A stretch of DNA of 40,216 bases, taken from IMG/VR virus record IMGVR_UViG_2579779009_000004; one strand, 5' to 3'. This document shows positions 1 through 40,216 of the stretch, in pieces; position 1 is the stretch's first letter, and each line of letters opens with the position of its first letter. A program made the translations under genes and the position numbers. Under the pieces are notes generated by a model. That model had not been told where the DNA came from, did no database searches, and saw only the letters and a program-made list of their open reading frames with translations. The stretch comes from a virus. Lineage: Duplodnaviria; Heunggongvirae; Uroviricota; Caudoviricetes.

Positions 1-1284
1 TTACAGACTTCTGGAAGGTTGCACAGCTCTTACAACACGCGGTTGATCTTCCGCAGCGTCTTCCAGCGCACTTAAATCACGGTCTTTCACTTCTGGCATT
101 TTCAGCGCAGAGATTAAACCAATCACTGAATATGCCATGATCATAATGGCGATCGGATACCAGGATTCCGTCATGGTGCAGAAAATACCCGCCAGGATAG
201 GACCAAAACCGGAAGCGATAAGACCACCAATTTCTTTAGAAATGGCCATCCGGGTAAAGCGGTTTTTACAGCCGAACATTTCTGCCATGGTAATGTTTTC
301 CAGAGCAAATAATCCCAGCACCGCACAGTTATGAATCACAATCAGTGCAACCATAATGGTGCTCGGGGCATAGCTTTTATCTACAATGATAGAAAGCATT
401 GGCCATGCCAGCACAATCGCGGAGGTATTCATAATAATATACGGGATCCGGCGACCAATTTTATCGGATAACCAACCAAGGAACGGAATGGTCATAAAGC
501 CGAGAATCGAACTAATCATCAATGCATCTGTTGGAATTGCTTTGTTAAACAATAACGTCTGCACTAAATAGCCTGCAAGGAAAGTCTGAATTAACCCGGA
601 GTTACCCGCCTGACCAAAACGCAGCCCTGTTGCCAGCCAGAAGGATTTGCTCTGGAACATGCTACCAGCAGGTGCAGGTTTTGCTGTGGGTTGGTTGCTG
701 TCATTAACCTTCTCAAAGACCGGGCTTTCTTTCAGATTCATACGTAACCAGATAGCAAAGACCATCACGACAACGCTCGCCAGGAACGGTATACGCCATC
801 CCCACGCCAGCAGTTCCTCTTTACTGAGAATGAAGAACATAAAGGCCCAGATTGCCGTTGCGCTCAAGGTTCCGCAGTTAGTTCCCATAGCTACAAATGA
901 GGAGATAATTCCGCGCTTACCTTTTGGTGCATATTCCGCCAGCATCGTACCGGCACCGGAAATTTCCGCACCTGCACCCAACCCCTGAATAATACGCAGC
1001 GTCACCAGCAAGATGGGGGCAAAAACACCAATCTGTGCATAGGTCGGTAACACACCAATTAAGGTGGTACAGATCCCCATCATGGTGATGGTAATAAAGA
1101 GCACTTTTTTACGCCCTATTCTGTCGCCCATTTTGCCGAAAATAAATGCTCCGACAATACGCGCCACATAACCTGCACCGTAGGTTCCCATTGCCAAAAT
1201 TAACGCCATTGCCGTTGATGATTCAGGAAAAAATATTTCATGAAACACTAACGCTGCGCCGAGCGAATATAACTGGAAATCCAT
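1..1284 (-). CDS. ydfJ: MFS metabolite:H+ symporter-family transporter, 3' portion of ydfJ; N-terminus appears truncated by the prophage insertion
   Basis: 427-aa ORF with multi-pass membrane character and the MFS motif GKMGDRIGRKK; the ATG at 1282-1284 is preceded two codons upstream by an in-frame stop. Compared with recalled ProP/KgtP paralogues the protein begins about 35 residues into the family (at the WFDF-equivalent position). Confidence 0.8.
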   Translation of the reverse strand: MDFQLYSLGAALVFHEIFFPESSTAMALILAMGTYGAGYVARIVGAFIFGKMGDRIGRKKVLFITITMMGICTTLIGVLPTYAQIGVFAPILLVTLRIIQGLGAGAEISGAGTMLAEYAPKGKRGIISSFVAMGTNCGTLSATAIWAFMFFILSKEELLAWGWRIPFLASVVVMVFAIWLRMNLKESPVFEKVNDSNQPTAKPAPAGSMFQSKSFWLATGLRFGQAGNSGLIQTFLAGYLVQTLLFNKAIPTDALMISSILGFMTIPFLGWLSDKIGRRIPYIIMNTSAIVLAWPMLSIIVDKSYAPSTIMVALIVIHNCAVLGLFALENITMAEMFGCKNRFTRMAISKEIGGLIASGFGPILAGIFCTMTESWYPIAIMIMAYSVIGLISALKMPEVKDRDLSALEDAAEDQPRVVRAVQPSRSL

Positions 1285-1888
1285 AATTCACAGGTGTTTT
1301 TTCCCATCCTGTGGTTTCCTTGGCGTTTTCTAGGTTTTTTCAGATAGTTGCATTTTTTAAAAAGCATCCTAAGTTCGATCTCAGTGTCTATCTGGGGCCT
1401 ATTTCTGTCCCATATATGCCCCAAAAAAAACTCCCCAACAGATAAGTAGTTTTTTCATGGATTTATGCGTAAAATCAAGAACGGCTGGAAATCATTCAAT
1501 ACTCACACTATCGAAAAATTTACCAGCCAACCGCAGCACGTTCTTGCATAAGGCGTGTCTGCGGTTTTTCAACTATTCAGATACATCACTCCCATCACAT
1601 TCATTCCTCCGCATCAAAGGCATATAGGCTATATCACCTTGATATTTTTCTTTTTCAGATAAAAACTGTTATCTATGTATACTTTTAAACCCAATCCGTG
1701 TAGAGTCTCTGCATAAGATAGTTTGCAGTTGCCGCTTCAGCTTGCGCCATAAACCGCCTGATTTTTGCTGCCACCTGTTAGCATTCCTGTATACCTGAAA
1801 CGACAATGTTTATCTACGAACTTTAAGAACACCCAAGATAAAAATTGTCAACTATATCATATATAACACATTACTAATTCGAGGCTAT

Positions 1889-2002
1889 ATGAACAGCATA
1901 CTGATAATCACATCTCTCCTTATCATATTCAGCATTTTTAGTCATGCCCTAATAAAATTAGGGATTGGCATATCCAATAACCCAGACAAAACCGATGTAT
2001 AA
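1889..2002 (+). CDS. candidate small hydrophobic peptide (37 aa, [37 protein letters not shown])
   Basis: ATG at 1889 with GAGG four nt upstream, TAA at 2000-2002; single predicted transmembrane helix. Below the ORF-track size cutoff, no homology known to me. Confidence 0.25.
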
Positions 2003-2070
2003 GTCAACATATCCTGAATCAGACATACAATATCGCAATGAAAATCAATAATATTTTAAGGAATATCTTC

Positions 2071-2304
2071 ATGAAATCAAAAGACACCCTAAAGTGGTTC
2101 CCTGCGCAGCTTCCTGAAGTAAGAATTATCCTAGGGGATGCTGTAGTGGAAGTAGCAAAACAGGGAAGACCTATCAATACCAGAACATTGCTTGATTACA
2201 TTGAAGGAAACATAAAGAAAAAATCATGGCTGGATAACAAAGAATTATTACAAACAGCGATATCAGTTCTTAAAGACAACCAAAATTTAAATGGTAAAAT
2301 GTAA
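2071..2304 (+). CDS. ydfK: YdfK/YnaE-family small prophage protein (cold-shock-associated)
   Basis: ORF 2038..2304; internal start MKSKDTLKWFPAQLPEVRIILG gives 77 aa with AAGGA about 8 nt upstream; matches my recollection of K-12 YdfK and sits next to pinQ as in Qin. Confidence 0.75.
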   Translation: MKSKDTLKWFPAQLPEVRIILGDAVVEVAKQGRPINTRTLLDYIEGNIKKKSWLDNKELLQTAISVLKDNQNLNGKM

Positions 2305-2620
2305 TATAATAAACTTACTTTTTTATCATTTTTCCACTTTAACAACATTTTACTCCACTTTTCCACGACCAAACAACTTGAAATCTGGTTAAAATAACAC
2401 GCAACACTATTCTTCTTCCTTGAGTCCGCCCGGAACTCGAAAAACAAACCGAGTTAAAGCCATTTTTCACAAAATCGATTTTGGGTCTCACCAAAGTTAC
2501 GGGGTTGCATACGCATTCGTTTATTTTCGAACGTGTACATACAAATATGCACAAAAATAATCAAAATTATTTTCTGAGATGCATTATGATATGAACACCA
2601 ATTTCGTATAGAGTCTCACT

Positions 2621-3211
2621 ATGTCTCGAATTTTTGCTTACTGTCGGATATCAACGCTGGATCAGACCACCGAAAATCAACGCCGGGAAATCGAAAGTGC
2701 AGGTTTTAAAATCAAACCTCAGCAAATAATCGAAGAACACATTAGCGGCTCAGCAGCAACCAGTGAGCGTCCTGGTTTTAACCGGTTGCTTGCTCGCCTG
2801 AAATGTGGTGATCAATTGATTGTGACAAAACTGGATCGCCTTGGTTGTAATGCAATGGATATCAGGAAAACAGTGGAACAACTGACCGAAACAGGTATCA
2901 GAGTGCATTGCTTAGCATTGGGGGGCATTGACCTGACCAGTCCAACAGGAAAAATGATGATGCACGTAATTTCAGCAGTCGCTGAATTTGAACGAGACCT
3001 TTTACTTGAACGCACTCATTCCGGGATAGTAAGAGCCCGCGGCGCAGGGAAACGTTTTGGTCGACCACCTGTGTTAAATGAAGAACAGAAACAGGTGGTA
3101 TTCGAACGAATTAAGTCAGGTGTAAGTATAAGTGCCATTGCCCGGGAATTCAAAACCTCGCGGCAAACCATTTTAAGAGCCAAAGCAAAACTTCAGACAC
3201 CTGACATATAA
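2621..3211 (+). CDS. pinQ: serine site-specific DNA invertase of the Pin/Gin/Hin/Cin family
   Basis: 196 aa; N-terminal catalytic motif YCRISTLDQ, resolvase core and C-terminal HTH ([19 protein letters not shown]); adjacent to the tail-fibre genes as in Qin/Rac/e14. Confidence 0.95.
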
Positions 3212-3308
3212 AAAATAATCTCGGTGTGAGATGCTTTACGTCTTCCAAGCCCCCTTCCTTGCCGTAAATGGAAAGATACATCTAATTATAGAATTTATAT
3301 GTTTTACC

Positions 3309-3884
3309 CTACGGCAGTGCTGGCCATTCAATATCCTGTGCAGTTGACGTATCAACACGGTTCAGCAACACCCGATACTTTTTCCAGGCTTCCAGCAATG
3401 AGGTTTCTTCCTCCGTTGCGATTTCCAGATCTACAGCATCCTGAAGTGGCGCAATATGCTCACTGGCTACCTGCATCAGGCTGTTTTTTGTTTCTTCCGC
3501 CTCTCGGATCCGGAACAGTTTTTCTGCTTCTGCATCTTTCACCCAGGCTGTGCCGTTCCACTTCTGAAACTCCCCTTCCGGCGATAACCAGGTAACATTT
3601 TCCGGTAACGGACCGAGTTCAGAAATAAACAACGCGTCCCCTGACGCTACGTCATAAACCGTTTTACCCCGATGGTCTTCATCGAGATGCCACGATGCCT
3701 TATCACTGTTGAAAACAGCCACAAAGCCAGCAGGAATATCTGGTGGTGCAATATCGGTACTGTTTGCTGGCAGACCTGTATGAGGCGGAATATATGCGTC
3801 ACCTTCACCAATAAATTCATTAGTTCCGGCCAGCAGATTATAAATTTTTATGGTCCGTGGTTGTTCACTCATTCTGAATGCCAT
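3309..3884 (-). CDS. tfa: tail fibre assembly protein (Tfa)
   Basis: 191-aa ORF immediately downstream of stf; the stf stop and tfa start overlap (TAATG at 3882-3886); typical Tfa size and position. Confidence 0.85.
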
Positions 3885-6800
3885 TATGCAAGCCTCACAA
3901 TATAGTTAAATGCGATGTTTTTGACGGTGTTTTCCGCGTTACCAGCAGCGTTAACGGTGATGGTGTGTCCATGTGAACCAATCGCAACGGAGTGCGTATG
4001 AGCACCAATACCGACAGTATGCGCGTGTGCACCTGCAGATGCTGCTGTGCCGGACAGTGAATGGCTATGATTACCATCTGTACTGGTATTCGCTAACCAC
4101 CCCGTAGACATACCTACTGAGCCTTGTACACCCCAGGTATTTTGACCTGAGCTTGTATAACCATATTGATAAGTATCTTTAAAAACACTGGGGTTAAATC
4201 GACGGCCATCTCTATGGCTGTGATTACCAGCTGCATTCGTGCTGCCACTTAAACTATGGGTATGCGCACCAGTGTTATTCGTGGATTTAGTGCCGTAATC
4301 AAACGACGATGTGGTTTTCGTCCCCAAATCCGTACTGGATGCGCTGGCGCTGTGGGTATGCGATTTAATGCCATCCTGTTCCTGAGACAATACGGCACGA
4401 CCACTGGCGGGCTTGCCCTTAATCGTCCAGCCACGCAAATCAGGGATCACGCCTGACGGATAAGCGGCAGCAAGTTTCGGGTAGGCAGATTTGTCAAAAG
4501 TCTGCCCCTGCATCAGGGCATAACCAGACGGAACGGTATCTGATGGCCACGGGATTGGTGCGCCGACTGGGTAGCTTTCTGGTGGAAGATTTTTCGAGGT
4601 ATAAACTTCTGCCCAGTCTTCCTCAAAACCATAGCCATCTCTTGAAGAACGGTAGAACAGACCACCATTTCTGTAATGCGCCTTCATCTGCAGGGTCCGG
4701 CAACTTCCGACTCCGGTATAGAAGTTAACCAGAATATAGCTGTCGCCAGAGCGGGTGACATTGTAAGCGCCTGATTCGGCATTCCAGGGAACGCCACCAT
4801 CCGCATCGGCATATGTATCCGTTGCCCTTCTGGCAAAAGCAGCCACATGCGCGGCGGTTAAAGTAATATCTTTGGAACCATCAAACTCAACACCAGAAAC
4901 CCGTCTTGGCGTTTGCAGCTTTGTTGCTGTTAATGCATTACCGTTCAGACTTGCGGACAGTTTGGTTCCAATAACCAGTTCGCCGGTTGCGTTATCAATA
5001 GCAAACGGTCTTAATGTATTCCAGCCACCATAAACATCACCTTGATTGGTAAGCAGCAGGTAAGTTTTAGCGCCATCATTACGCCATAATGCCCCATACT
5101 CCCCACCTATCATTCGAATCTGATTACCACCACGCGCTACAATTTCGTCTGTGGCAAAAAGTTTTTTGCACGACAAGTTATCGTTAACGATTAACGAATG
5201 AGACTCATAAAAACCACGCCCACTCTTAAAATCAAGGATAACGTCCGCCGCGATACATTCAGTCGCCGGATTTGTTGCCCCAAACTTATAGGTCGTATCA
5301 TTAACAACGAGATCAGCACCAGGTGCGGATATTGACAGGCCATCTTCGATAAACGCAAAAACAGGGAAAGCAGCGCCATCAACATAGAACACAGAGCGCA
5401 AATCATCGCCCTTATTACTCATCATTATTGAGTGGATGGCTCGTTCATTGTTTTGATATTGCCAGAACATTCCATAAGCATAACGCCCCCTGTCAGTCCA
5501 GCCACCAGGCATAACAAATCCGTTAAACTCGCAGTTATTCATCGGATCGCCTGCGGTTCGCGTTGCCGTGGTGATAATGACCCTTGATGCCAGTTCGCTT
5601 ACTGAGCCAGCAGAACGCATAACAACAACAGGGTAATATTTTCCAGATATTGCACCTGCAGGAGCGTTAACCCGCACATAACGCATACCACGCTTATCAG
5701 CAAAGTCTGTTTTACTGACCGCGTTAATGTTGTTCAGGAAGCGTCCCTTATCGGGTATATCAGCGCCGTTCTGGTCTTTCTGCAGACGTTTCTCTGCATT
5801 GTCATAGGCTGATTTTACTGCCTTTGGCGTTGCCGCCAGCGTTTCAGACGAACTGTTGGTCGCACTGCTGAGCTGTACTATCCCCTTTTTCGTCGTACTT
5901 GCATCCTCAAGCGCCACGGCGGATGCAATATCCTCTGCCCGTTTAGCTGCTGTCTCGGCGCGCGTTGCTGCGGATTCTGCCGTATTCTTGCTCTGTGCTG
6001 CCGCCGTCGCACTGCCAGCAGCCTCTGTTGCCTTCGTGGATGCCGTCGTGGCGCTGCCTTTCGCTGCTGATGCCTGTCTGGTCGCCTCATCTTTTGAAGC
6101 AGACGCCGATGAGGCCGATGACGCCGCCGAACTGGCGGACGATGCGGCAGCCGTTTTTGAGGATTCTGCGCTGGTTTCCGACGCTTTCGCGTTCGTTTCG
6201 GATGTCTTCGCTGCGGAAGCTGACCTCGCTGCTGCGTTGGCCTGTTCAGTGGCTTCGCCAGCCTTCGTTGTGGCTGTTGAAGCAGACGATGCGGCACTTT
6301 CTGCCGATTTTCCGGCGGCGGTGGCACTGGCTGAGGCCTGCCCGGCACTTGTTGACGCGGTACTGGCAGACGACGCAGCCGCTGTTTTTGAGCCTGCCGC
6401 AGCTGAGGCGCTCTGTCCCGCTGCCGTCTCAGAAGACCTGGCGTTCGTCTCGGACGTTTTTGCCGCCTTCGCGGAATTTCCTGCCGCCGTTGCCGAGGAA
6501 GCTGCGCTACTGGCGCTCGAGGATGCGTTCGTTTCTGATGATTTCGCTGCCTCTTTTGAGGCCGCCGCATCCCGGGCTGAGGTGGCAGCTTCTGACGCTT
6601 TCGTGGTCGCGGTGGATGCAGAAGTGGCTGCTGATTGTTGTGACGCTGCGGCATTCGTTTCTGACGTTTTCGCCGCACCGGCACTGGTAGCCGCCGCGCT
6701 TTTTGAGGACTCTGCAGCGGCAGCACTTTTTGATGCTTCAGTAGCCTTTGTTGATGCCGTTCCTGCGCTGGAAGACGCTGACTGAGCCGACGTCGCGGCC

Positions 6801-7282
6801 TGCCCGGCTGATGTGCTGGCTGCACGTGCTGAGCCTGCAGCATCAGTCGCATGGGTTGCCGCCTCACGGGCTGATGTGCCGGCATCGCTGGCTGACTTCT
6901 TCGCGGCTGCCGTGTTCTGTGCCACCGCGGACGCGTTACGCGCCACCTCTTCCACCATCAGCTCAAAACGGCGCAGTGCCTCCGGACGGGCATCATCCTC
7001 CGTCATGGCACCGAGAAAATCATTCAGCGTACCGGGTCGGGAATCTTCATACACGGTGATGGTCCCGGCATGTGACGGCGGGAATCCTTCCACCAACAGA
7101 ATAACGCTGTACTGACCGTACTCAACGTCCATGCTGTAACGCCCGGCTTCATCCGGATTTTCTGAGGCCAGCGTGTTCACCACCACCGTGGTGCTGTTAC
7201 GTTTTGCTTTCAGCTGGATTGTGCAGTTCTGTACCGGTTTTCCTGTGCCGTCTTTCAGTACACCTGAAATCTTTACTGCCAT
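3884..7282 (-). CDS. stf: side tail fibre protein (Stf), long Rac-StfR-like form
   Basis: N-terminus [26 protein letters not shown] matches lambda Stf; long Ala/Ser/Thr-rich central region; C-terminal His-rich repeats ending ...[19 protein letters not shown] typical of Stf. The ORF-track start at 7288 is a GTG; the first ATG is at 7282. Confidence 0.9.
5860..6890 (-). repeat. low-complexity repetitive coding region (Ala/Ser/Thr-rich segment of Stf)
   Basis: About 1 kb with all six reading frames nearly stop-free (three long overlapping ORFs on both strands in the ORF track); reiterated GCN/TCN/ACN codons. Confidence 0.8.
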
Positions 7283-7293
7283 ATTCACCCCAC

Positions 7294-7319
7294 AAAAAAG
7301 CCCGCCTGAACCGGCGGGC
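7294..7319 (-). terminator. rho-independent terminator downstream of lom
   Basis: Perfect 7-bp stem gcccgcc/ggcgggc (7300-7306 and 7313-7319) with 6-nt loop, followed on the minus strand by a U-run (plus-strand A-run 7294-7299). Confidence 0.6.
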
Positions 7320-7346
7320 TGTCATAACACTGTGTTACCTGGCTAA

Positions 7347-7946
7347 TCAGAACTTATAACCGACACCCACGATGAAACCGTCAGTGCGCCAGTCGCCACT
7401 GCCGGAGCCTTCATAAGCAATATCAATGGCCACGGATTCGGTCGGGTTAAACTGCACGCCAGCTCCCCACGCCAGAGACGTGTTGCTGTGGCGACCGTCA
7501 TCACTTCCGGTCAGCACGTCGTGCGTTTTCCCCTTGTTGTCAGTTACGCGGAGATAATCCCCGGAGAAAGTCGACACACGGCTGTAAGCCATACCCGCCA
7601 TCGCATACGCGCTGAACCATTCATTCACGCGCACAGACGGCCCCGCCATCACGCTGAACCAGCGGTTACGCACGGAATCTTCATGCCAGCGGGTATCGCT
7701 GTAACGGGTAAGCTGGCGATTCTTGTCTCCTGCATAGCTGAATGACGTCACCAGCCCCAGTGTGTCCGTAAACTCATAACGGTATTTCACGTTAATCCCG
7801 TTAAGATCATCGCTGCCGGGAACGTTCGTCGAGGCATGAAGATAGCCCGCGCTCAGCGTGGACTGATGTTCAGATGCCCATGCAGGCGCACCGGATACGG
7901 ACAGACAGATGGCTGCGGACAAAATGGCTGCACAAACTTTACGCAT
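7347..7946 (-). CDS. lom: Lom-like outer membrane protein (Ail/PagC/OmpX family)
   Basis: 199 aa; signal peptide [24 protein letters not shown]; C-terminus ...[26 protein letters not shown] as I recall for lambda Lom; located between J and stf as in lambda. Confidence 0.9.
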
Positions 7947-28647: not shown

Positions 28648-28854
28648 CTTCATTTTCACTTTTTTAAATCCAACGACAGACGGCTGGCATTTAAGTATTG
28701 TGAAATATTATCAAATGTAATCATCATTGATTTACAAAAGATACATTTTGCCCCGAAAGGATTCATGTCAGAAACATCAAAAGATGATGTTCTATACTGG
28801 GAACCATGACAACACGGGCATCTAAAGTGAATATGGTTTGTAATATTGTCTACC

Positions 28855-29067
28855 TCAAAGCGCCACTACATGAACAGCGGCAGGACCTTTAGGTCCGTTC
28901 TCAATACCAAATTCAACTTCCTGATTCTCAGTTAATGTTTTGAAATCGTTGCTCTGAATTGCTGAGAAATGGACAAACACATCTTTGCTGCCATCTTTCG
29001 GCGTGATGAAACCAAAACCTTTTTCAGGGTTAAACCATTTCACTAAACCAGTCATTTTGTTAGACAT
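28855..29067 (-). CDS. cspI: cold-shock protein (CspA family)
   Basis: [70 protein letters not shown], a full cold-shock domain with RNP1/RNP2 motifs; position matches cspI of Qin. Confidence 0.9.
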
Positions 29068-29429
29068 AATTATTACCTTTTGAAGAAATTAGCCCTTGGG
29101 CAGAATGGTCCGAAAAAAAATATCAGAGAGAAAAACCAACAAGGAAATCTCAAGAGGTACAAATAATAAAATTATAACAATGACTGCTTCAGATAAATTT
29201 GTAACAAACCAGAACACCATTAACGCATGATTAACCACCCATAGCAAGGATTACTTTTGTAAAGAAAAACACAGCAATGAAAGAATAGCTTTATTTATTA
29301 ATAAAACGTGTCATTCTGATTAAGACCTTTTATCTTACCCTTAAGATTTCAGGAATTTTGGCTCATGGAAGAGTCCTTTTTATTTAAATTTTACATTCCG
29401 CGATGTAAATGTTCCGATTTAATATTACC

Positions 29430-31456: not shown

Positions 31457-31739
31457 TTGAGATTGTGGTGCTTTTTGTGGGAGTCATCCACTTACGCACT
31501 TTGTTTTGCGATGCCAGCAGTTAGCTTCTGCTGTGAAACTATTCATGCAGCAAACCTGCACTTCACCACAATGGTTAGCATACTTTTCCTGATTAAGATT
31601 TTGCCAAATATACTAGCCATTGTTTCATGTATTGGACCTCCTTACTTTTTATTAAAGAGATCCAATATTCACTACTCTGTCCGTATCTCTACTCAGGCAT
31701 CAGCCTTCTTCGTTATCGTATACAGACGAGCGATGAATT

Positions 31740-31955
31740 TTAATCAGTAATGATGACATTTGCTGCTGCAGGACCTTTAGCACCACTCTCTATAGAGAAG
31801 GTAACCTTTTGACCTTCAAATAAGGTTCGATAATTATCATTCTGAATCGCAGAAAAATGCACAAACACATCTTTACTACCATCAACAGGAGAAATAAAGC
31901 CGAAACCTTTATCAGCGTTAAACCATTTTACTAAACCAGTCATTTTATTTGACAT
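31740..31955 (-). CDS. cspB: cold-shock protein (CspA family)
   Basis: [71 protein letters not shown]; a paralogue of the cspI copy at 28855..29067. Confidence 0.9.
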
Positions 31956-32253
31956 TCTACATTCCTTAACTTGAGCCTTTCGGCATAAATGGTTTGCATA
32001 ACAGAAACGACTTCGTACTTAATTGGAGAGACTCAAAGAAGGAATAAGTGAATAACACCTGAAATGAGAACTGCTTTAGTAAACTACTTCGTATATCGTC
32101 TGTTCTTCAAACCGACGCAGTCATTAACTCATAGTTGAACATATGAAGCAATGTTTATTTTAGACATCCAGCCACCTTCAATCCTATCAAAAAAGTAGTT
32201 TTCTCCAGGAACGTGTGTATGGTGCACCAGGTTATCAGTATTAAGGAGTTTTT

Positions 32254-33396: not shown

Positions 33397-34446
33397 TTAC
33401 GCCAGTACGCCAATTGCCAGCGCGCGATCGATAAAACGAAATATCAGCTCCAGTTGGGAGCCATACTTCTCTTCAAATGCCACTGTATCCGTATGCAGCT
33501 CGTTGTGATGCTTTCTGCACAAAGGCAACACAAAGAGATCATGTGCTTTTGTTCCCATTCCGCCCTGCCCGTGACCAATCAGATGATGCGGATCGTCGGC
33601 TGGCATACCGCAGCAAGCACACGGCTGTGTCTTAACCCAACGTGTGTATTTCTCCTTAACCCAGCGGCGACGTTTAGGCAGCTTCATGAAAGATTCCGGA
33701 GACTCTGGATCAACGGTGATGCTTACCACCGTCTTTTCCTGTGGTGTTTTTTGTTGCTGGTGGGCGTAAGGCAACGGTGCAAGATTTTTTGTGCGTTGTT
33801 TCAATATGCTGGTGGCGGTCTGCTCTCCCGGTACGATGTCGCTTTCGCGGTACACCGAGCAGATTTTTTCCGCTGGTAATCCCAGCGAACGACGCGATAC
33901 AGCCTCAGGTAGTGCATCCACCACCTGATTGCAGACCGCCCACCAGGATAATTCAGCCAAAGATAATTCCCGCTCCTGCGTACCGCTTATTGCGTGACGG
34001 ATGACGTCAATCACCCATGCTGTCAGATTTTGTTGAGCAAGCAGCTCCAGTGATTCCGATGTCTGGTCACGCAGTTGGTTGTCGCAGTGCCAACACAACA
34101 CCATTGCGCCGGTACCATAACGGTGAATGACTGTTTCAGAGTGATGGTAATCGCCATTAGGCCACTGGCAGGATGTAACATGACGTAATAGCCAGTCAGA
34201 CAATGCGCCAACACCGCCAGCAGCACGAATCACCCGTTCGTTACTAAAAAACGGCAGCAATGTTTTGTCTTCCGCCAGCGACTGGCGAACGGCAGGAACG
34301 ACTCCGGATGGCAGATTACGCATGCTTTTTGGTTCCGGTTCCACCAGCACTCGAGGATTATGAAATATCTGTATGGATTCACGGCCCGGCTTAAGGACCA
34401 CCAGCCCAAGCTCAGGCACCAGAACAGGTCTAAGTAATACCCGCAC
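33397..34446 (-). CDS. DUF968-family protein with C-terminal HNH-like motif (YdfU-like)
   Basis: C-terminal ...CACCGMPADDPHHLIGHGQGGMGTKAHDLFVLPLCRKHHNELH is HNH-like. Start proposed at the GTG at 34444-34446 (GGAGG 4 nt upstream, one nt after the upstream stop) giving 349 aa; the ORF-track start at 34485 is the alternative. Confidence 0.7.
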   Translation of the reverse strand: MRVLLRPVLVPELGLVVLKPGRESIQIFHNPRVLVEPEPKSMRNLPSGVVPAVRQSLAEDKTLLPFFSNERVIRAAGGVGALSDWLLRHVTSCQWPNGDYHHSETVIHRYGTGAMVLCWHCDNQLRDQTSESLELLAQQNLTAWVIDVIRHAISGTQERELSLAELSWWAVCNQVVDALPEAVSRRSLGLPAEKICSVYRESDIVPGEQTATSILKQRTKNLAPLPYAHQQQKTPQEKTVVSITVDPESPESFMKLPKRRRWVKEKYTRWVKTQPCACCGMPADDPHHLIGHGQGGMGTKAHDLFVLPLCRKHHNELHTDTVAFEEKYGSQLELIFRFIDRALAIGVLA

Positions 34447-34447
34447 G

Positions 34448-34726
34448 TTACCTCCAGATCCGTTGCTGGAAAGTGCGGGACGCACGTGGTGGGCGTTCGG
34501 AGTAAGGCAATCTGACTGAGATTATCCAGTGACGGTAGTCGAGGCTAAGGGCTTTCTTAACCTCGTATCCGCGCCTGCGGTAACACTGAATTATCCATTC
34601 AGCCTGCTCTTCAGTGCATGGAGGGTGTTGGAACCATTCAGACTTGAATGCGTGAGAATACCGCTCGTGCGTGCAGACAAGAACGGGCGAATTATCAGAA
34701 TTGTAATATTTTACGTTGCGTGCCAT
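34448..34726 (-). CDS. hypothetical protein (92 aa)
   Basis: ORF with GGAG 7 nt upstream of the ATG; Cys/His-containing; no family recognised. Confidence 0.45.
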   Translation of the reverse strand: MARNVKYYNSDNSPVLVCTHERYSHAFKSEWFQHPPCTEEQAEWIIQCYRRRGYEVKKALSLDYRHWIISVRLPYSERPPRASRTFQQRIWR

Positions 34727-34792
34727 CGGTTTTCTCCGGTGGCACGGTGTTACTCAGCGGGAGTTCAGCCCCGCGCAAGATTGTAGATGAGT

Positions 34793-35044
34793 TTATTCTT
34801 CTGCAAAAGCTGAAAAGCCTGCTTTTATTCCGATCTCTTTCAGTGCCTGTAATGAAGTGACAAACTCACCTTCGCGCAAGATAAATCCGTCTGTCACTCG
34901 ACCATCCACAAAATTAATTAACGCAGCCCCATTCTTTCGCAAACACATAATGCGGTAATGACTAACAAGATTTCCATTTTCAACGCACACAGCATAGAGG
35001 CCATCTTCACAAAAAATTTTACGCAGTTCTTCGATGTTCATCAT
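34793..35044 (-). CDS. hypothetical protein (83 aa), possibly Rem-like by synteny
   Basis: ORF with GGAAGGA Shine-Dalgarno; same size and position as rem (between ydfU and hokD) in K-12 Qin as I recall; the sequence identity is not verified. Confidence 0.5.
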   Translation of the reverse strand: MMNIEELRKIFCEDGLYAVCVENGNLVSHYRIMCLRKNGAALINFVDGRVTDGFILREGEFVTSLQALKEIGIKAGFSAFAEE

Positions 35045-35160
35045 CAGAATCCTTCCGGATAATTAGCTCTCCCCTTTAAGGGACCATCCCTCTTATCCCT
35101 GCGCGCTACTTAAGTATTTTTGATTCTATTCCGGCACCGTCCAGAACTTCAAACGCGTTG

Positions 35161-35192
35161 AAAATAAAAACAAAAACCCGCCGAAGCGGGTT
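35161..35192 (-). terminator. rho-independent terminator downstream of hokD
   Basis: Hairpin aacccgcc-gaa-gcgggtt (about 35175-35192) followed on the minus strand by a U-rich tract (plus 35161-35176 is A-rich). Confidence 0.55.
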
Positions 35193-35260
35193 AAGTGCGG
35201 GTGCGTTGAGGATGCCTGCCACATCAGAGGTGGCGAGGGATTTCTCCCTCGCCGGGTTTC

Positions 35261-35416
35261 TTACTCCTCAGGTTCGTAAGCTGTGAAGACAGCGACCTCC
35301 GTCTGGCCGGTTCGGATTCGTACCTCGCAGAGGTCTTTCCTCGTTACCAGTGCCGTCACTATGACGGTTAAACAGATGACGATCAGGGCGATTAACATCG
35401 CCTTTTGCTGCTTCAT
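35261..35416 (-). CDS. hokD: Hok-family type I toxin (HokD/RelF)
   Basis: MKQQKAMLIALIVICLTVIVTALVTRKDLCEVRIRTGQTEVAVFTAYEPEE, 51 aa, Hok signature; the ORF-track extension upstream is rejected. Confidence 0.9.
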   Translation of the reverse strand: MKQQKAMLIALIVICLTVIVTALVTRKDLCEVRIRTGQTEVAVFTAYEPEE

Positions 35417-35636
35417 AGCCTGCTTCTCCTTGCCTTTCGGCACGTAAGAGGCTAACCTACATATGTCTAGCATGAAATTGGCCTCAGATTAATGTTAAGC
35501 GTCTTGCAGGACGCGTAATGTTAACTGGGGCTTTTCTCTATCTGCCGTTGGTGTTCATGCCCGAGGCAGATAGCCTCAAGCACCCGCAGCCATTCTACTT
35601 AACTACTGAAGTGGTCAACAAAAACTGGCCACCGAG

Positions 35637-36784
<1,148 letters not shown>

Positions 36785-36856
36785 TATGGCACCTGTGTTG
36801 TTCTGAGGTGAGCATATCACCTCTGTTCAGGTGGCCAAATTCAGTAAACCACTTCA

Positions 36857-38577
36857 ATGACGAACTGGCCTACGCTCTCTGGCCTGGTGATGTGGATGCC
36901 GGAAACATTGACGGCAGCATCCATCGCTGGGCAAAAAAAGAAGTTATCGACAACGACCGCGAAGACTGGAAGCGTATCTCGGCATCAATGCGCAAACAGC
37001 CTGATGCCCTTCGCTACGACCGCCAGACTATTTTTGGCCTTGTCCGTGAGCGTCCGATCGACATTCACAAAGATCCCGTAGCACTGAACAAATATATCTG
37101 CGAATACCTGACGACAAAGGGCGTGTTTGAGAATGAAGAAACAGACCTGGGCACTGTTGATGTTCTCCAGTCATCAGAAACACAAACTGATGCAGTGGAA
37201 ACTGAGGTATCTGATATCCCAAAAAATGAAACCGCGCCGGAAGCTGAACCATCTGTAGAGCGTGAGGGGCCGTTCTATTTCCTCTTCGCAGATAAGGACG
37301 GAGAAAAATACGGTCGCGCAAACAAACTTTCTGGTCTGGATAAGGCACTGGCTGCTGGCGCCACTGAAATCACAAAAGAAGAATATTTTGCCCGAAAAAA
37401 TGGCACATACACGGGCTTACCGCAAAATGTAGATACCGCTGAAGATTCAGAACAACCAGAGCCGATAAAAGTTACCGCTGACGAAGTAAACAAAATTATG
37501 CAGGCAGCCAATATCAGCCAGCCTGACGCTGATAAGTTGCTTGCTGCATCACGTGGTGAATTTGTTGAAGGGATTAGTGACCCGAATGATCCGAAATGGG
37601 TTAAGGGGATCCAGACCCGCGATTCTGTGAACCAGAACCAGCATGAATCGGAACGGAACTACCAAAAAGCGGAACAAAACAGTCCAAATGCGTTACAAAA
37701 CGAGCCAGTAACGAAACAGCCTGAACCAGTAGCGCAACAGGAAGTGGAAAAAGTCTGCACCGCCTGCGGTCAGACCGGCGGCGGCAACTGCCCTGATTGT
37801 GGCGCGGTGATGGGCGACGCAACATACCAGGAAACATTCGATGAAGAGTATCAGGTTGAAGTTCAGGAAGATGATCCGGAGGAAATGCAAGGCGCTGAAC
37901 ATCCACACAAGGAGAACACTGGCGGCAATCAGCATCACAATAGCGATAATGAAACTGGCGAGACGGCAGATCACCCAATTAAGGTGAACGGTCATCACGA
38001 AATCACATCCACCAGCAGGGCGTGTGACCATCTAATGATCGACCTTGAAACCATGGGAAAAAATCCTGATGCCCCGATCATCTCAATAGGTGCAATATTT
38101 TTCGATCCGCAAACCGGAGATATGGGACCGGAATTTAGTAAGACTATCGATCTGGAAACTGCTGGCGGAGTCATTGATCGGGACACCATTAAATGGTGGC
38201 TTAAGCAATCACGCGAAGCGCAATCTGCCATTATGACCGATGAAATCCCGTTAGATGATGCACTGTTACAATTGCGGGAATTTATCGACGAAAACTCCGG
38301 TGAATTTTTTGTTCAGGTTTGGGGAAATGGAGCCAACTTCGACAACACGATTTTGCGCCGTTCATACGAACGGCAGGGGATCCCCTGCCCGTGGCGTTAC
38401 TACAACGATCGCGATGTACGCACAATCGTTGAGCTGGGGAAAGCCATAGACTTCGATGCCAGAACGGCTATTCCATTCGAAGGTGAGCGCCATAATGCAC
38501 TTGATGACGCCCGTTACCAGGCAAAATACGTTTCAGTTATCTGGCAAAAACTGATCCCGAGTCAGGCTGATTCTTAA
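36857..38577 (+). pseudogene. 5'-truncated gene encoding a protein with a C-terminal DEDDh (DnaQ-like) 3'-5' exonuclease domain
   Basis: The reading frame runs straight out of the IS911 right end with no credible start or Shine-Dalgarno after the IS; the C-terminal region has Exo I/II/III motifs (HLMIDLETMG, VWGNGANFDNTIL, HNALDDARYQAKY); it is upstream of xis and int. Confidence 0.6.
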
Positions 38578-38649
38578 TGTTCAACTGTCGCCGGTTGTGA
38601 CTGGTATTCTGCAACCGGCGCTCGTCTGATGTAAGAGATAAAGAAATCG

Positions 38650-38901
38650 ATGAGCGAAGTAATCATGATTGTCTCTCCCGGCAAATGGGTATCCGAAGAG
38701 CAGTTAATTGCGCTGAAAGGAATAAAAAAAGGTACGTTAAAAAAGGCCCGGGAAAAATCGTTTATGGAAGGAAGGGAATATAAGCATGTCGCTCATGACG
38801 GTATGCCATGGGATAACAGTCCATGCTTTTACAACCTGGAAGAAATTGATCGCTGGATTGAGCGCCAGGCATCAGCGAGACCAAGACGTCATCTTACTTG
38901 A
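38650..38901 (+). CDS. xis: putative excisionase / small DNA-binding protein
   Basis: 83-aa basic ORF immediately upstream of, and co-oriented with, the integrase. Confidence 0.5.
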   Translation: MSEVIMIVSPGKWVSEEQLIALKGIKKGTLKKAREKSFMEGREYKHVAHDGMPWDNSPCFYNLEEIDRWIERQASARPRRHLT

Positions 38902-38935
38902 CTAAAAGCCACACTAACTAATGAGAGAAGTTGAA

Positions 38936-40216
38936 ATGAAATATCCGACAGGCGTGGAAAACCATGGAGGGAAATTACGTATCTGGTTTGTTTATAAAGG
39001 CGTAAGAGTCAGGGAAAATCTGGGGGTTCCTGACACAGCAAAAAACAGGCGCGTTGCAGGTGAACTACGCTCCTCTGTTTGTTACGCAATAAAAACTGGT
39101 GTTTTCGACTATGCAAAACAGTTTCCCTCCTCACGCAATCTGGAAAAATTTGGTGAGGCCCGACAAGATTTAACCATAAAAGAACTGGCTGAAAAATTTC
39201 TGGCACTGAAAGAAACTGAAGTCGCCAAAACATCACTCAACACATACCGTGCCGTCATCAAAAATATCCTGAGCATAATCGGTGAAAAAAATCTTGCCTC
39301 ATCGATTAATAAAGAAAAATTACTGGAGGTTCGTAAAGAGTTACTGACTGGATACCAGATCCCCAAAAGTAACTATATTGTTACACAACCAGGGAGATCG
39401 GCTGTAACTGTAAATAATTACATGACAAATCTTAACGCCGTGTTCCAGTTTGGTGTTGATAACGGTTACCTGGCAGATAATCCGTTTAAGGGGATCTCGC
39501 CATTAAAGGAATCAAGAACCATTCCGGATCCTCTTTCGCGGGAAGAATTTATCCGTCTTATCGATGCGTGCAGAAATCAGCAAGCAAAAAATTTATGGTG
39601 TGTTTCTGTTTATACTGGCGTTCGCCCTGGTGAGCTGTGTGCACTTGGATGGGAGGACATAGATCTGAAAAATGGAACAATGATGATCAGGAGAAATTTA
39701 GCAAAAGACCGTTTCACGGTACCAAAAACACAGGCGGGAACCAATCGGGTCATTCATCTTATTAAGCCAGCAATCGACGCTCTCCGGAGTCAGATGACAT
39801 TAACGAGACTGAGCAAAGAGCATATCATTGATGTTCACCTCAGAGAGTATGGCAGAACAGAAAAACAAAAATGCACCTTTGTTTTTCAACCTGAAGTGTC
39901 AGCGAGAGTAAAAAATTATGGTGACCATTTTACCGTTGACTCAATAAGGCAGATGTGGGACGCAGCGATAAAACGTGCCGGACTCCGCCATCGAAAATCA
40001 TATCAGTCGAGACATACTTATGCCTGCTGGTCGCTGACAGCTGGTGCTAACCCGGCATTTATAGCAAACCAGATGGGCCATGCAGATGCGCAAATGGTAT
40101 TTCAGGTATACGGAAAATGGATGTCTGAAAACAATAATGCACAGGTAGCTTTGTTAAATACACAGTTAAGCGAGTTTGCCCCAACCATGCCCCATAACGA
40201 AGCAATGAAAAATTAA
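38936..40216 (+). CDS. int: tyrosine site-specific integrase
   Basis: About 426 aa from MKYPTGVENHGGKLRIWF...; a C-terminal catalytic domain with conserved Arg, His-x-x-Arg and Tyr residues (…VYTGVRPGEL…HTYACWSLTAGANPAFIANQMGHADAQMVFQVYGKW…); the stop is the last triplet of the window. Confidence 0.9.
   Translation: MKYPTGVENHGGKLRIWFVYKGVRVRENLGVPDTAKNRRVAGELRSSVCYAIKTGVFDYAKQFPSSRNLEKFGEARQDLTIKELAEKFLALKETEVAKTSLNTYRAVIKNILSIIGEKNLASSINKEKLLEVRKELLTGYQIPKSNYIVTQPGRSAVTVNNYMTNLNAVFQFGVDNGYLADNPFKGISPLKESRTIPDPLSREEFIRLIDACRNQQAKNLWCVSVYTGVRPGELCALGWEDIDLKNGTMMIRRNLAKDRFTVPKTQAGTNRVIHLIKPAIDALRSQMTLTRLSKEHIIDVHLREYGRTEKQKCTFVFQPEVSARVKNYGDHFTVDSIRQMWDAAIKRAGLRHRKSYQSRHTYACWSLTAGANPAFIANQMGHADAQMVFQVYGKWMSENNNAQVALLNTQLSEFAPTMPHNEAMKN

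Follow-up and report, generated by a model that had tools for sequence, protein, structure and literature searches.

The window analysed in this work, a stretch of 40,216 nt, opens with a reading frame of the host transporter gene ydfJ and continues into prophage DNA. This raises the question of whether the prophage inserted beside an intact gene or inside it, and of where the exchange between the two genomes took place. A sequence-only reading of the window had proposed that the prophage splits ydfJ and that the attachment site should lie near 1285-1900. Our results support the first of these views, and we are almost certain about the nature of positions 1276-1286: they form the junction distal to the integrase, attR by the lambda convention, of a lambdoid prophage of the Qin type, a kind represented by the free phages mEp460_ev081, Tritos and HannyBb, and this junction arose by Int-mediated integration into codons 28-31 of ydfJ. 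The features discussed below are collected in Table 1.

Table 1. Features of the host gene, the junction and the integration module in the window
Feature	Position	Strand	Description
ydfJ'	1..1284	-	427-aa MHS-family MFS transporter gene without promoter and first 28 codons
att core GAAATCCATAA	1276..1286		11-bp identity common to attP, attB and both prophage junctions
Phage arm of att site, about 175 bp	1287..1461	+	Identical or nearly identical to the attP flanks of mEp460_ev081, Tritos and HannyBb
HK97-shared segment	1462..1567	+	88.8% identity to HK97; also in other lambdoid phages; begins just after the annotated sib site of HK97
Intrinsic-terminator-like hairpin (1529-1566) and U-run	1529..1571	+	RNA fold -20.7 kcal/mol, z = -3.9
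ynfT	1889..2002	+	37-aa small membrane protein, YnaM/YnfT family, prophage cargo; NCBIfam NF041477, 63.9 bits (cut-off 35)
ydfK	2071..2304	+	Cold-shock protein gene, prophage b-region; RefSeq annotation in near-identical genomes and K-12
Excisionase, DUF1233 family	38650..38901	+	Pfam PF06806, E = 1.6e-31
Tyrosine integrase with N-terminal arm-DNA-binding domain	38936..40216	+	PF12167 (Arm-DNA-bind_2), E = 1.6e-23; PF00589 (Phage_integrase), E = 4e-18

The 427-aa reading frame and the intact allele

In profile searches the 427-aa product matches Pfam MFS_1 and Sugar_tr as well as TIGR00883, the model for MHS metabolite/H+ symporters. An uninterrupted ydfJ of 1,368 nt, coding for 455 aa, is annotated between ydfI and rspB in strain 05-3629, and with respect to this allele the window product is short of 28 residues, so that the N-terminus of a full-length MHS member, with the start of the first transmembrane segment, is incomplete. 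The matches of the truncated product start at position 7 of TIGR00883 and at positions 37, 40 and 37 of the NCBIfam models for ShiA, ProP and KgtP-like transporters, whereas those of the intact 455-aa YdfJ start at positions 1, 12 and 22 of TIGR00883, ShiA and ProP. The earlier estimate of about 35 missing residues agrees with the ShiA, ProP and KgtP-like models, but not with the gene's own intact allele, against which the loss is exactly 28 residues. The apparent ATG of the 427-aa frame (1282-1284) is the internal Met29 of the 455-aa protein, and it falls within the att core.

The stop codon that had been noticed two codons upstream of this ATG is present, as an in-frame TGA on the minus strand (...CAC CTG TGA ATT ATG); the coding-strand sequence that precedes the ATG is ...CACCTGTGAATT-ATG. 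We also considered whether the phage might supply a replacement N-terminus for YdfJ, and this is ruled out, since it is the phage side that brings the TGA.

Could the 427-aa frame nevertheless be the complete native ydfJ, with the prophage lying in the intergenic space between ydfJ and rspB and no gene disrupted? The RefSeq record of K-12 carries ydfJ (b1543) as an ordinary 427-aa CDS with no pseudogene label, the SE11 genome paper describes the insertion site as 'between ydfJ and rspB', and the truncated protein, with 453.5 bits, stays above the curated TIGR00883 cut-off of 443.45 (the intact allele reaches 462.9 bits). Against this stand the shifted model starts described above, the PGAP label of ydfJ in strain ABW_A19 ('incomplete; missing N-terminus'), and the structure of the empty and occupied sites. 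We built a synthetic empty site of 585 bp by joining window positions 987-1286 to the sequence that follows the shared 11-mer in strain LR-46. This join gives a continuous 455-aa ORF, MTIEKHERSTKDLVKAAVSGWLGTALEFMDFQLYSLG..., whose residues 29-455 are the window ORF. The 585-bp sequence was found in one piece and at 100% identity in many genomes, and in 2,011 of the 5,426 complete E. coli genomes (37%) a single place covers at least 80% of it. In occupied genomes, a 28-codon ydfJ stub adjoins rspB, and the core lies inside the reading frame. A native 427-aa protein beside an intergenic prophage is therefore very improbable, and we retain the reading in which ydfJ has been split.

Expression of the truncated protein is formally possible, given that the K-12 RefSeq record lists the 427-aa ORF as a normal CDS. 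We infer, from the loss of the promoter, of the ribosome-binding context and of part of the first transmembrane segment, that the truncated gene is non-functional.

The breakpoint and the att core

In a base-by-base alignment, positions 1-1286 of the window share 99.2% identity, with ten mismatches, with the intact ydfI-ydfJ-rspB locus of strain 05-3629, and divergence is complete from 1287 onward. Similarity to ydfJ does not continue further upstream of the gene: it ends at 1286. On the other side, window positions 1287-2620 are 99.6% identical to mEp460_ev081, 98.5% to HannyBb and 98.4% to Tritos, and in these three free phages the equivalent segment is directly preceded by the core, a 37-bp spacer and the integrase gene. 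Since similarity to the host ends at 1286 and what follows is contiguous with an integrase gene in three free phages, the 600 bp after ydfJ are phage DNA. Together with the existence of the uninterrupted 455-aa locus, these observations support the proposal that the transporter gene is split by the prophage. Many complete E. coli chromosomes match positions 1-2100 at 99.8-100% identity, with ydfJ, ynfT and ydfK annotated there by PGAP, and the ydfJ-side junction of the window type is present in 1,990 genomes.

The base composition changes close to the same place. In 300-bp windows the G+C content is 0.32-0.41 mostly or wholly within 1285-2400, and 0.43-0.52 wholly inside ydfJ. The sequence-only reading had taken the AT-rich 600 bp for the end of the phage b-region carrying attR; they are indeed phage DNA next to the b-region, but the core is outside the AT-rich stretch, at the gene boundary, as it overlaps the apparent ATG. 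The interval 1285-1900 is only just touched at its edge by the core, and the deeper placement that it implied did not hold. An att site at about 1300-1900, with host upstream sequence from 1285 to that point, would fit the AT-rich composition, which is like that of typical att arms. We nevertheless give it a negligible probability: all that positions 1287-2100 have in common with the intact host locus are chance words of at most 14 nt, and all of 1287-2620 occurs in free phages, contiguous with the core and int.

The core GAAATCCATAA corresponds to nt 83-93 of intact ydfJ, that is, to codons 28-31 (F-M-D-F), and a search of the window found exactly one copy. When phage attP and the empty attB are aligned with the window junction and with the integrase-side junction of other strains, reciprocal flanks appear around the core, and the same reciprocal pattern was obtained when this four-way alignment was widened to six sequences with both ends of the K-12 Qin prophage. 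Across the core, attP joins the int side to the window side, and attB joins the ydfJ side of the window to the rspB side. The alignments thus display the short identity core with reciprocal flanks that characterizes a lambda-type att site. In Tritos the core carries one substitution, GAAATGCATAA.

As the sequence-only reading had observed, the integrase gene is at the opposite edge of the window; that reading accordingly expected attL and the other half of ydfJ just beyond 40216, an expectation that the relatives described here support. The integrase gene follows the excisionase gene and reads outward, and the window ends with its stop codon. In strain LR-46 and in the three phages the core begins 37 bp after this stop codon. 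In LR-46 the sequence past the integrase runs through these 37 bp and then through ...CTCTT-GAAATCCATAA-ATTCAAGCGCAGTGCCCAGCC..., into the 5' end of the short ORF by rspB. LR-46 and K-12 both have a second copy of the core at the int end, and the equivalent place would be about 38-48 nt past the end of the window. Among the complete RefSeq E. coli genomes, window positions 34000-40216 have no collinear 100% match, the best being 98.6% identical in four pieces, and for this reason the second junction has been placed from relatives. We assembled for it a 542-bp query from the last 300 bp of the window, the 37-bp spacer, the core, the ydfJ 5' stub and the end of rspB, and this was found in one place in 2,704 of the 5,426 complete E. 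coli genomes (49.8%), at 100% identity in many of them.

The precision of these breakpoints also bears on how the junction was formed. The prophage carries elsewhere an IS3-family element with an associated deletion, and IS elements interrupt the ydfJ locus in other strains, so transposition, illegitimate recombination or deletion could be considered in place of the integrase. However, K-12 and LR-46 share their breakpoints with the window down to the single nucleotide, and these breakpoints fall on the attP core in three free phages; the same ydfJ-side and int-side junctions recur in the genomes counted above, and there is no IS end at 1287. An origin by any of these other routes is exceedingly improbable, and we propose that the junction was made by the phage integrase.

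In lambda-type integrases, Int acts with IHF to recombine attP with the host site, and Xis reverses the reaction. By analogy with them, the phage tyrosine integrase, together with host IHF, would recombine attP with the ydfJ site at the shared core GAAATCCATAA, with strand exchange presumably taking place inside the 11 bp. Integration would duplicate the core, the second copy being placed from relatives. It leaves the 3' 427 codons next to ydfI (window 1-1284), and the promoter and the first 28 codons next to rspB, beyond position 40216. Xis would direct the reverse reaction, and excision would be scarless and restore the 455-aa gene.

The integration module and the phage arm

Our analyses show that the window Int is identical to that of the free phage mEp460_ev081 at 423 of 426 positions, and that the Xis proteins of the two are 100% identical. 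The integrase combines a catalytic and an arm-binding domain, with an excisionase gene upstream of int, as is typical of the lambda-type heterobivalent integrases, and its catalytic residues (VRPGEL, SRHTYA, GH and VY) were recognized by eye from known tyrosine-recombinase motifs.

The arm that follows the core is specific to this integrase/att module, and by position it is equivalent to the P arm of lambda. In phages with other integrases (HK97, 2H10, Turner and others) similarity to the window starts only at about 1462-1513. An att arm of this type is expected to carry arm-type Int sites, Xis sites and IHF sites. A repeat search around attP found no secure arm-type Int sites in 1287-1461; the repeats that it gave form short families with no more than two or three members, which may be due to chance, and they include an 18/21 core-like copy inside the 3' end of int. 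A repeated motif, CAGATAGTTG, is located at 1341-1350, and CA(A/G)ATAGTTG is present in two direct copies around attP, with its last part, AATAGTTGA, once inverted, a copy number that is possible by chance. A consensus scan for IHF was negative in window positions 1287-1500; the exact IHF consensus, TATCAAATAGTTG, is found in the relatives in the 37-bp spacer between the int stop codon and the core, outside the window.

Farther from the core, the position of ynfT matches that of K-12 ynfT (b4748). Rfam, searched at gathering thresholds, had no match in 1-2070, and promoter and terminator consensus scans of 1200-2700 were no richer than in shuffled sequence (7 against 5.0 and 1 against 0.7, respectively). 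The terminator scan missed the hairpin at 1529-1566, the loop of which is beyond the limit of the scan.

The fold energy of 1529-1571 was matched by none of 200 shuffles. The hairpin is invariant in the three free phages and conserved in HK97. It follows the core at a distance of about 240-285 nt, on the strand that transcription from int would reach once the phage is circular. In the phage form it stands beyond attP and downstream of int, and in the prophage it stands apart from int, and we consider it a candidate tI-like terminator by position, which would be split from int on integration. A BLAST match in this region bears the HK97 'sib' label, which we rejected, because the match overlaps the annotated feature by just 7 nt and conservation does not extend to the sib hairpin. 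HK97 sib as annotated (L006 2458-2507) has no alignment to the window, where only the segment immediately after sib is shared, and the window stretch equivalent to sib folds weakly (-6.5 kcal/mol, z = -0.4). Because the hairpin at 1529-1571 is not homologous to the annotated HK97 and lambda sib, a retroregulatory role in int expression is put forward as a hypothesis, to which we give somewhat less than an even chance.

The module resembles that of lambda and HK97 in the order of its parts, namely xis, int, a core shortly after the int stop codon, a long arm and a terminator hairpin in the b-region, and also in having a heterobivalent integrase and in that integration parts int from the downstream hairpin. 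It differs in its core and in its host site, which in lambda and HK97 are GCTTTTTTATACTAA and the region between gal and bio, and in the subfamily of its integrase (Arm-DNA-bind_2). Furthermore, and unlike that of lambda and HK97, this type of integration disrupts a protein-coding gene without restoring it.

A defective relative of K-12 Qin and its effect on ydfJ

The Qin-type junction in ydfJ is already known, common and well annotated. Qin has been reported to integrate site-specifically at the 5' end of ydfJ, with loss of the promoter and truncation by 28 codons (PMC6379469), and for the laboratory strains W, K-12, B and Crooks ydfJ has been listed as the gene into which Qin is inserted (PMC3032704). 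The left junction of the cryptic prophage Qin of K-12 MG1655 (NC_000913.3 1632277..1652745) agrees with the window junction to the base over the 90 nt aligned, with the same 11-bp core; its start at 1632277 corresponds to window position 1276, and K-12 ydfJ occupies 1631002..1632285. Both prophages have the order ynfT-ydfK-pinQ-tfaQ at the ydfJ end and an IntQ-type integrase at the rspB end, and ynfP, a small ORF at the other end of K-12 Qin, is the ydfJ stub.

The two prophages differ in what they have kept. With about 39 kb, the window prophage surpasses K-12 Qin in the completeness of its late genes and of int and xis: it retains the full morphogenesis module, from the terminase to the side tail fibre (a 1134-aa Stf), as well as an intact Int and an intact Xis. 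K-12 Qin, of 20.5 kb, has lost the genes for head and tail, and its intQ is a pseudogene interrupted by IS2. In contrast, the dicA/dicC/dicB/relBE region kept in K-12 Qin is missing from the window prophage. In K-12, no excision of Qin was detected (PMC3105296).

The free phages have the same int-xis-attP module, and in them the att arm, ydfK and the pin region are 98.4-99.6% identical to the window. In the structural half of the window (1287-25000), 93% of the sequence is covered by mEp460_ev081 at 97.5% identity. The genomes of these phages, mEp460_ev081 (LR597641), Tritos (OV696610) and HannyBb (PP925841), are complete, measure 45-46 kb and include repressor and replication genes. The window has lost that region, and with it codons 1-249 of the exonuclease gene; what is left of this gene, residues 250-823, is abutted by an IS3-family element (35607-36856), and the repressor and the O-like replication protein of mEp460_ev081 have no homologue anywhere in the window. 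Given the cut exonuclease gene beside the IS3-family element and the missing homologues, the window copy is a defective Qin-type prophage without its immunity and replication region.

What could be the role of such a prophage in its host? The repressor, the replication genes and the pL region are lost, yet Int and Xis remain 99% and 100% identical to the proteins of viable phages, and one could speculate that the prophage acts as a reversible switch ('active lysogeny'), in which the prophage would now and then leave precisely at the 11-bp core, so that the 455-aa ydfJ is restored and ydfJ-ydfI is connected again with the rspAB promoter. Our data show only that excision would be scarless and that both states of the site are common, 37% of genomes being empty and 50% occupied. 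We regard this reading as very improbable; if it were true, a cluster for sugar-acid uptake and catabolism would be turned on in a subpopulation.

The occupancy of about half of the complete E. coli genomes that we obtained is consistent with the presence of Qin in 48% of 638 strains (PMC6379469). The significance of these results beyond correct annotation is small. The exact coordinates of the core, of the phage arm and of the int/xis module allow a clean delimitation of the prophage and the design of primers for excision assays. Our results indicate that the 427-aa 'YdfJ' of the window and of K-12 is a 5'-truncated, promoterless remnant and not the native transporter, the true protein having 455 aa, and that in the prophage state ydfJ-ydfI is uncoupled from rspAB.

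Att core variants and the adjoining phage arm

The att core of the free phage Tritos (approximately 1590-1600 of its locus, L011) carries one substitution, GAAATGCATAA, when compared with the E. coli ydfJ site and with the other phages. Either the substitution falls at a site not included in the strand-exchange overlap, or it may lower integration efficiency; both are possibilities. A core-like copy of 21 nt, TGAAAACAATAATGCACAGGT, was also located on the plus strand inside the 3΄ end of the integrase gene (window ~40127-40147). This copy precedes the core by 127 bp, is identical at 18 of 21 positions to the attP core region TGAAATCCATAATTCACAGGT, and could be due to chance or represent a secondary Int-binding site.

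Past the core, the strong terminator-like hairpin (Table) is kept in the three free phages with the same int-xis-attP module (mEp460_ev081, Tritos and HannyBb) as well as in HK97, where the annotated sib sits just upstream of the matching position. When the phage is circular, this hairpin may act on int transcripts as a tI-like element. Between the att arm and pin are placed ynfT and ydfK, which accompany the b-region module in phages bearing different integrases (2H10, Turner), and are cargo-like genes.

Features of the prophage (RNA elements are Rfam matches above the gathering score)
Feature	Window position	Strand	Remarks
Terminator-like hairpin	1529-1571	+	Folding -20.7 kcal/mol, z = -3.9
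ynfT	1889-2002	+	Small membrane protein gene
ydfK	2071-2304	+	Cold-shock gene
Pin-type serine invertase gene	2621-3211	+	
tfa and side tail fibre gene	3309-7288	-	Side tail fibre, 1134 aa
IS009 RNA	3343-3541	-	Inside tail-fibre-assembly gene
cspA-type thermoregulator leader	28828-29213	-	
cspA-type thermoregulator leader	31724-32116	-	
sok antitoxin RNA	35411-35585	-	hokD locus
IS3-family element	35607-36856		Two transposase ORFs; terminal inverted repeats of 27 bp, imperfect
Exonuclease gene, 5΄-shortened	36853-38577		Only residues 250-823 kept

Invertase, tail fibre genes and RNA elements

The invertase gene adjoins tfa and the side tail fibre gene. These genes are not flanked by inverted repeats: in window 2300-7600 the only two inverted pairs found are short (15-16 nt) and internal, and because of this the invertase appears to be an orphan lacking an invertible segment, as in K-12 Qin. 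By synteny with K-12, the two cspA-type leaders were assigned to cspI and cspB.

Defective state of the prophage and an insertion in another strain

The prophage of E. coli ABW_A19 (NZ_CP067307.1; locus L001) has a ydfJ junction identical to that of the window, and its major capsid gene is interrupted by an element of ~11 kb (L001 22824-34512), adjoined by an IS66 element. Among the products of the insertion are an integrase, a major capsid protein and a head decoration protein of its own, as well as a primase, an SSB, an Icd-like protein and a TIR-domain protein. It resembles a phage satellite of the capsid-forming type, residing within a prophage capsid gene.

In the window, the exonuclease remnant is adjoined by the IS3-family element, and no homologues of the mEp460_ev081 repressor and replication genes, which in that phage lie between exo and rem, were found anywhere in its sequence. 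Because the exonuclease gene is cut short and the repressor and replication genes are missing, this prophage is defective, although int and xis are intact.
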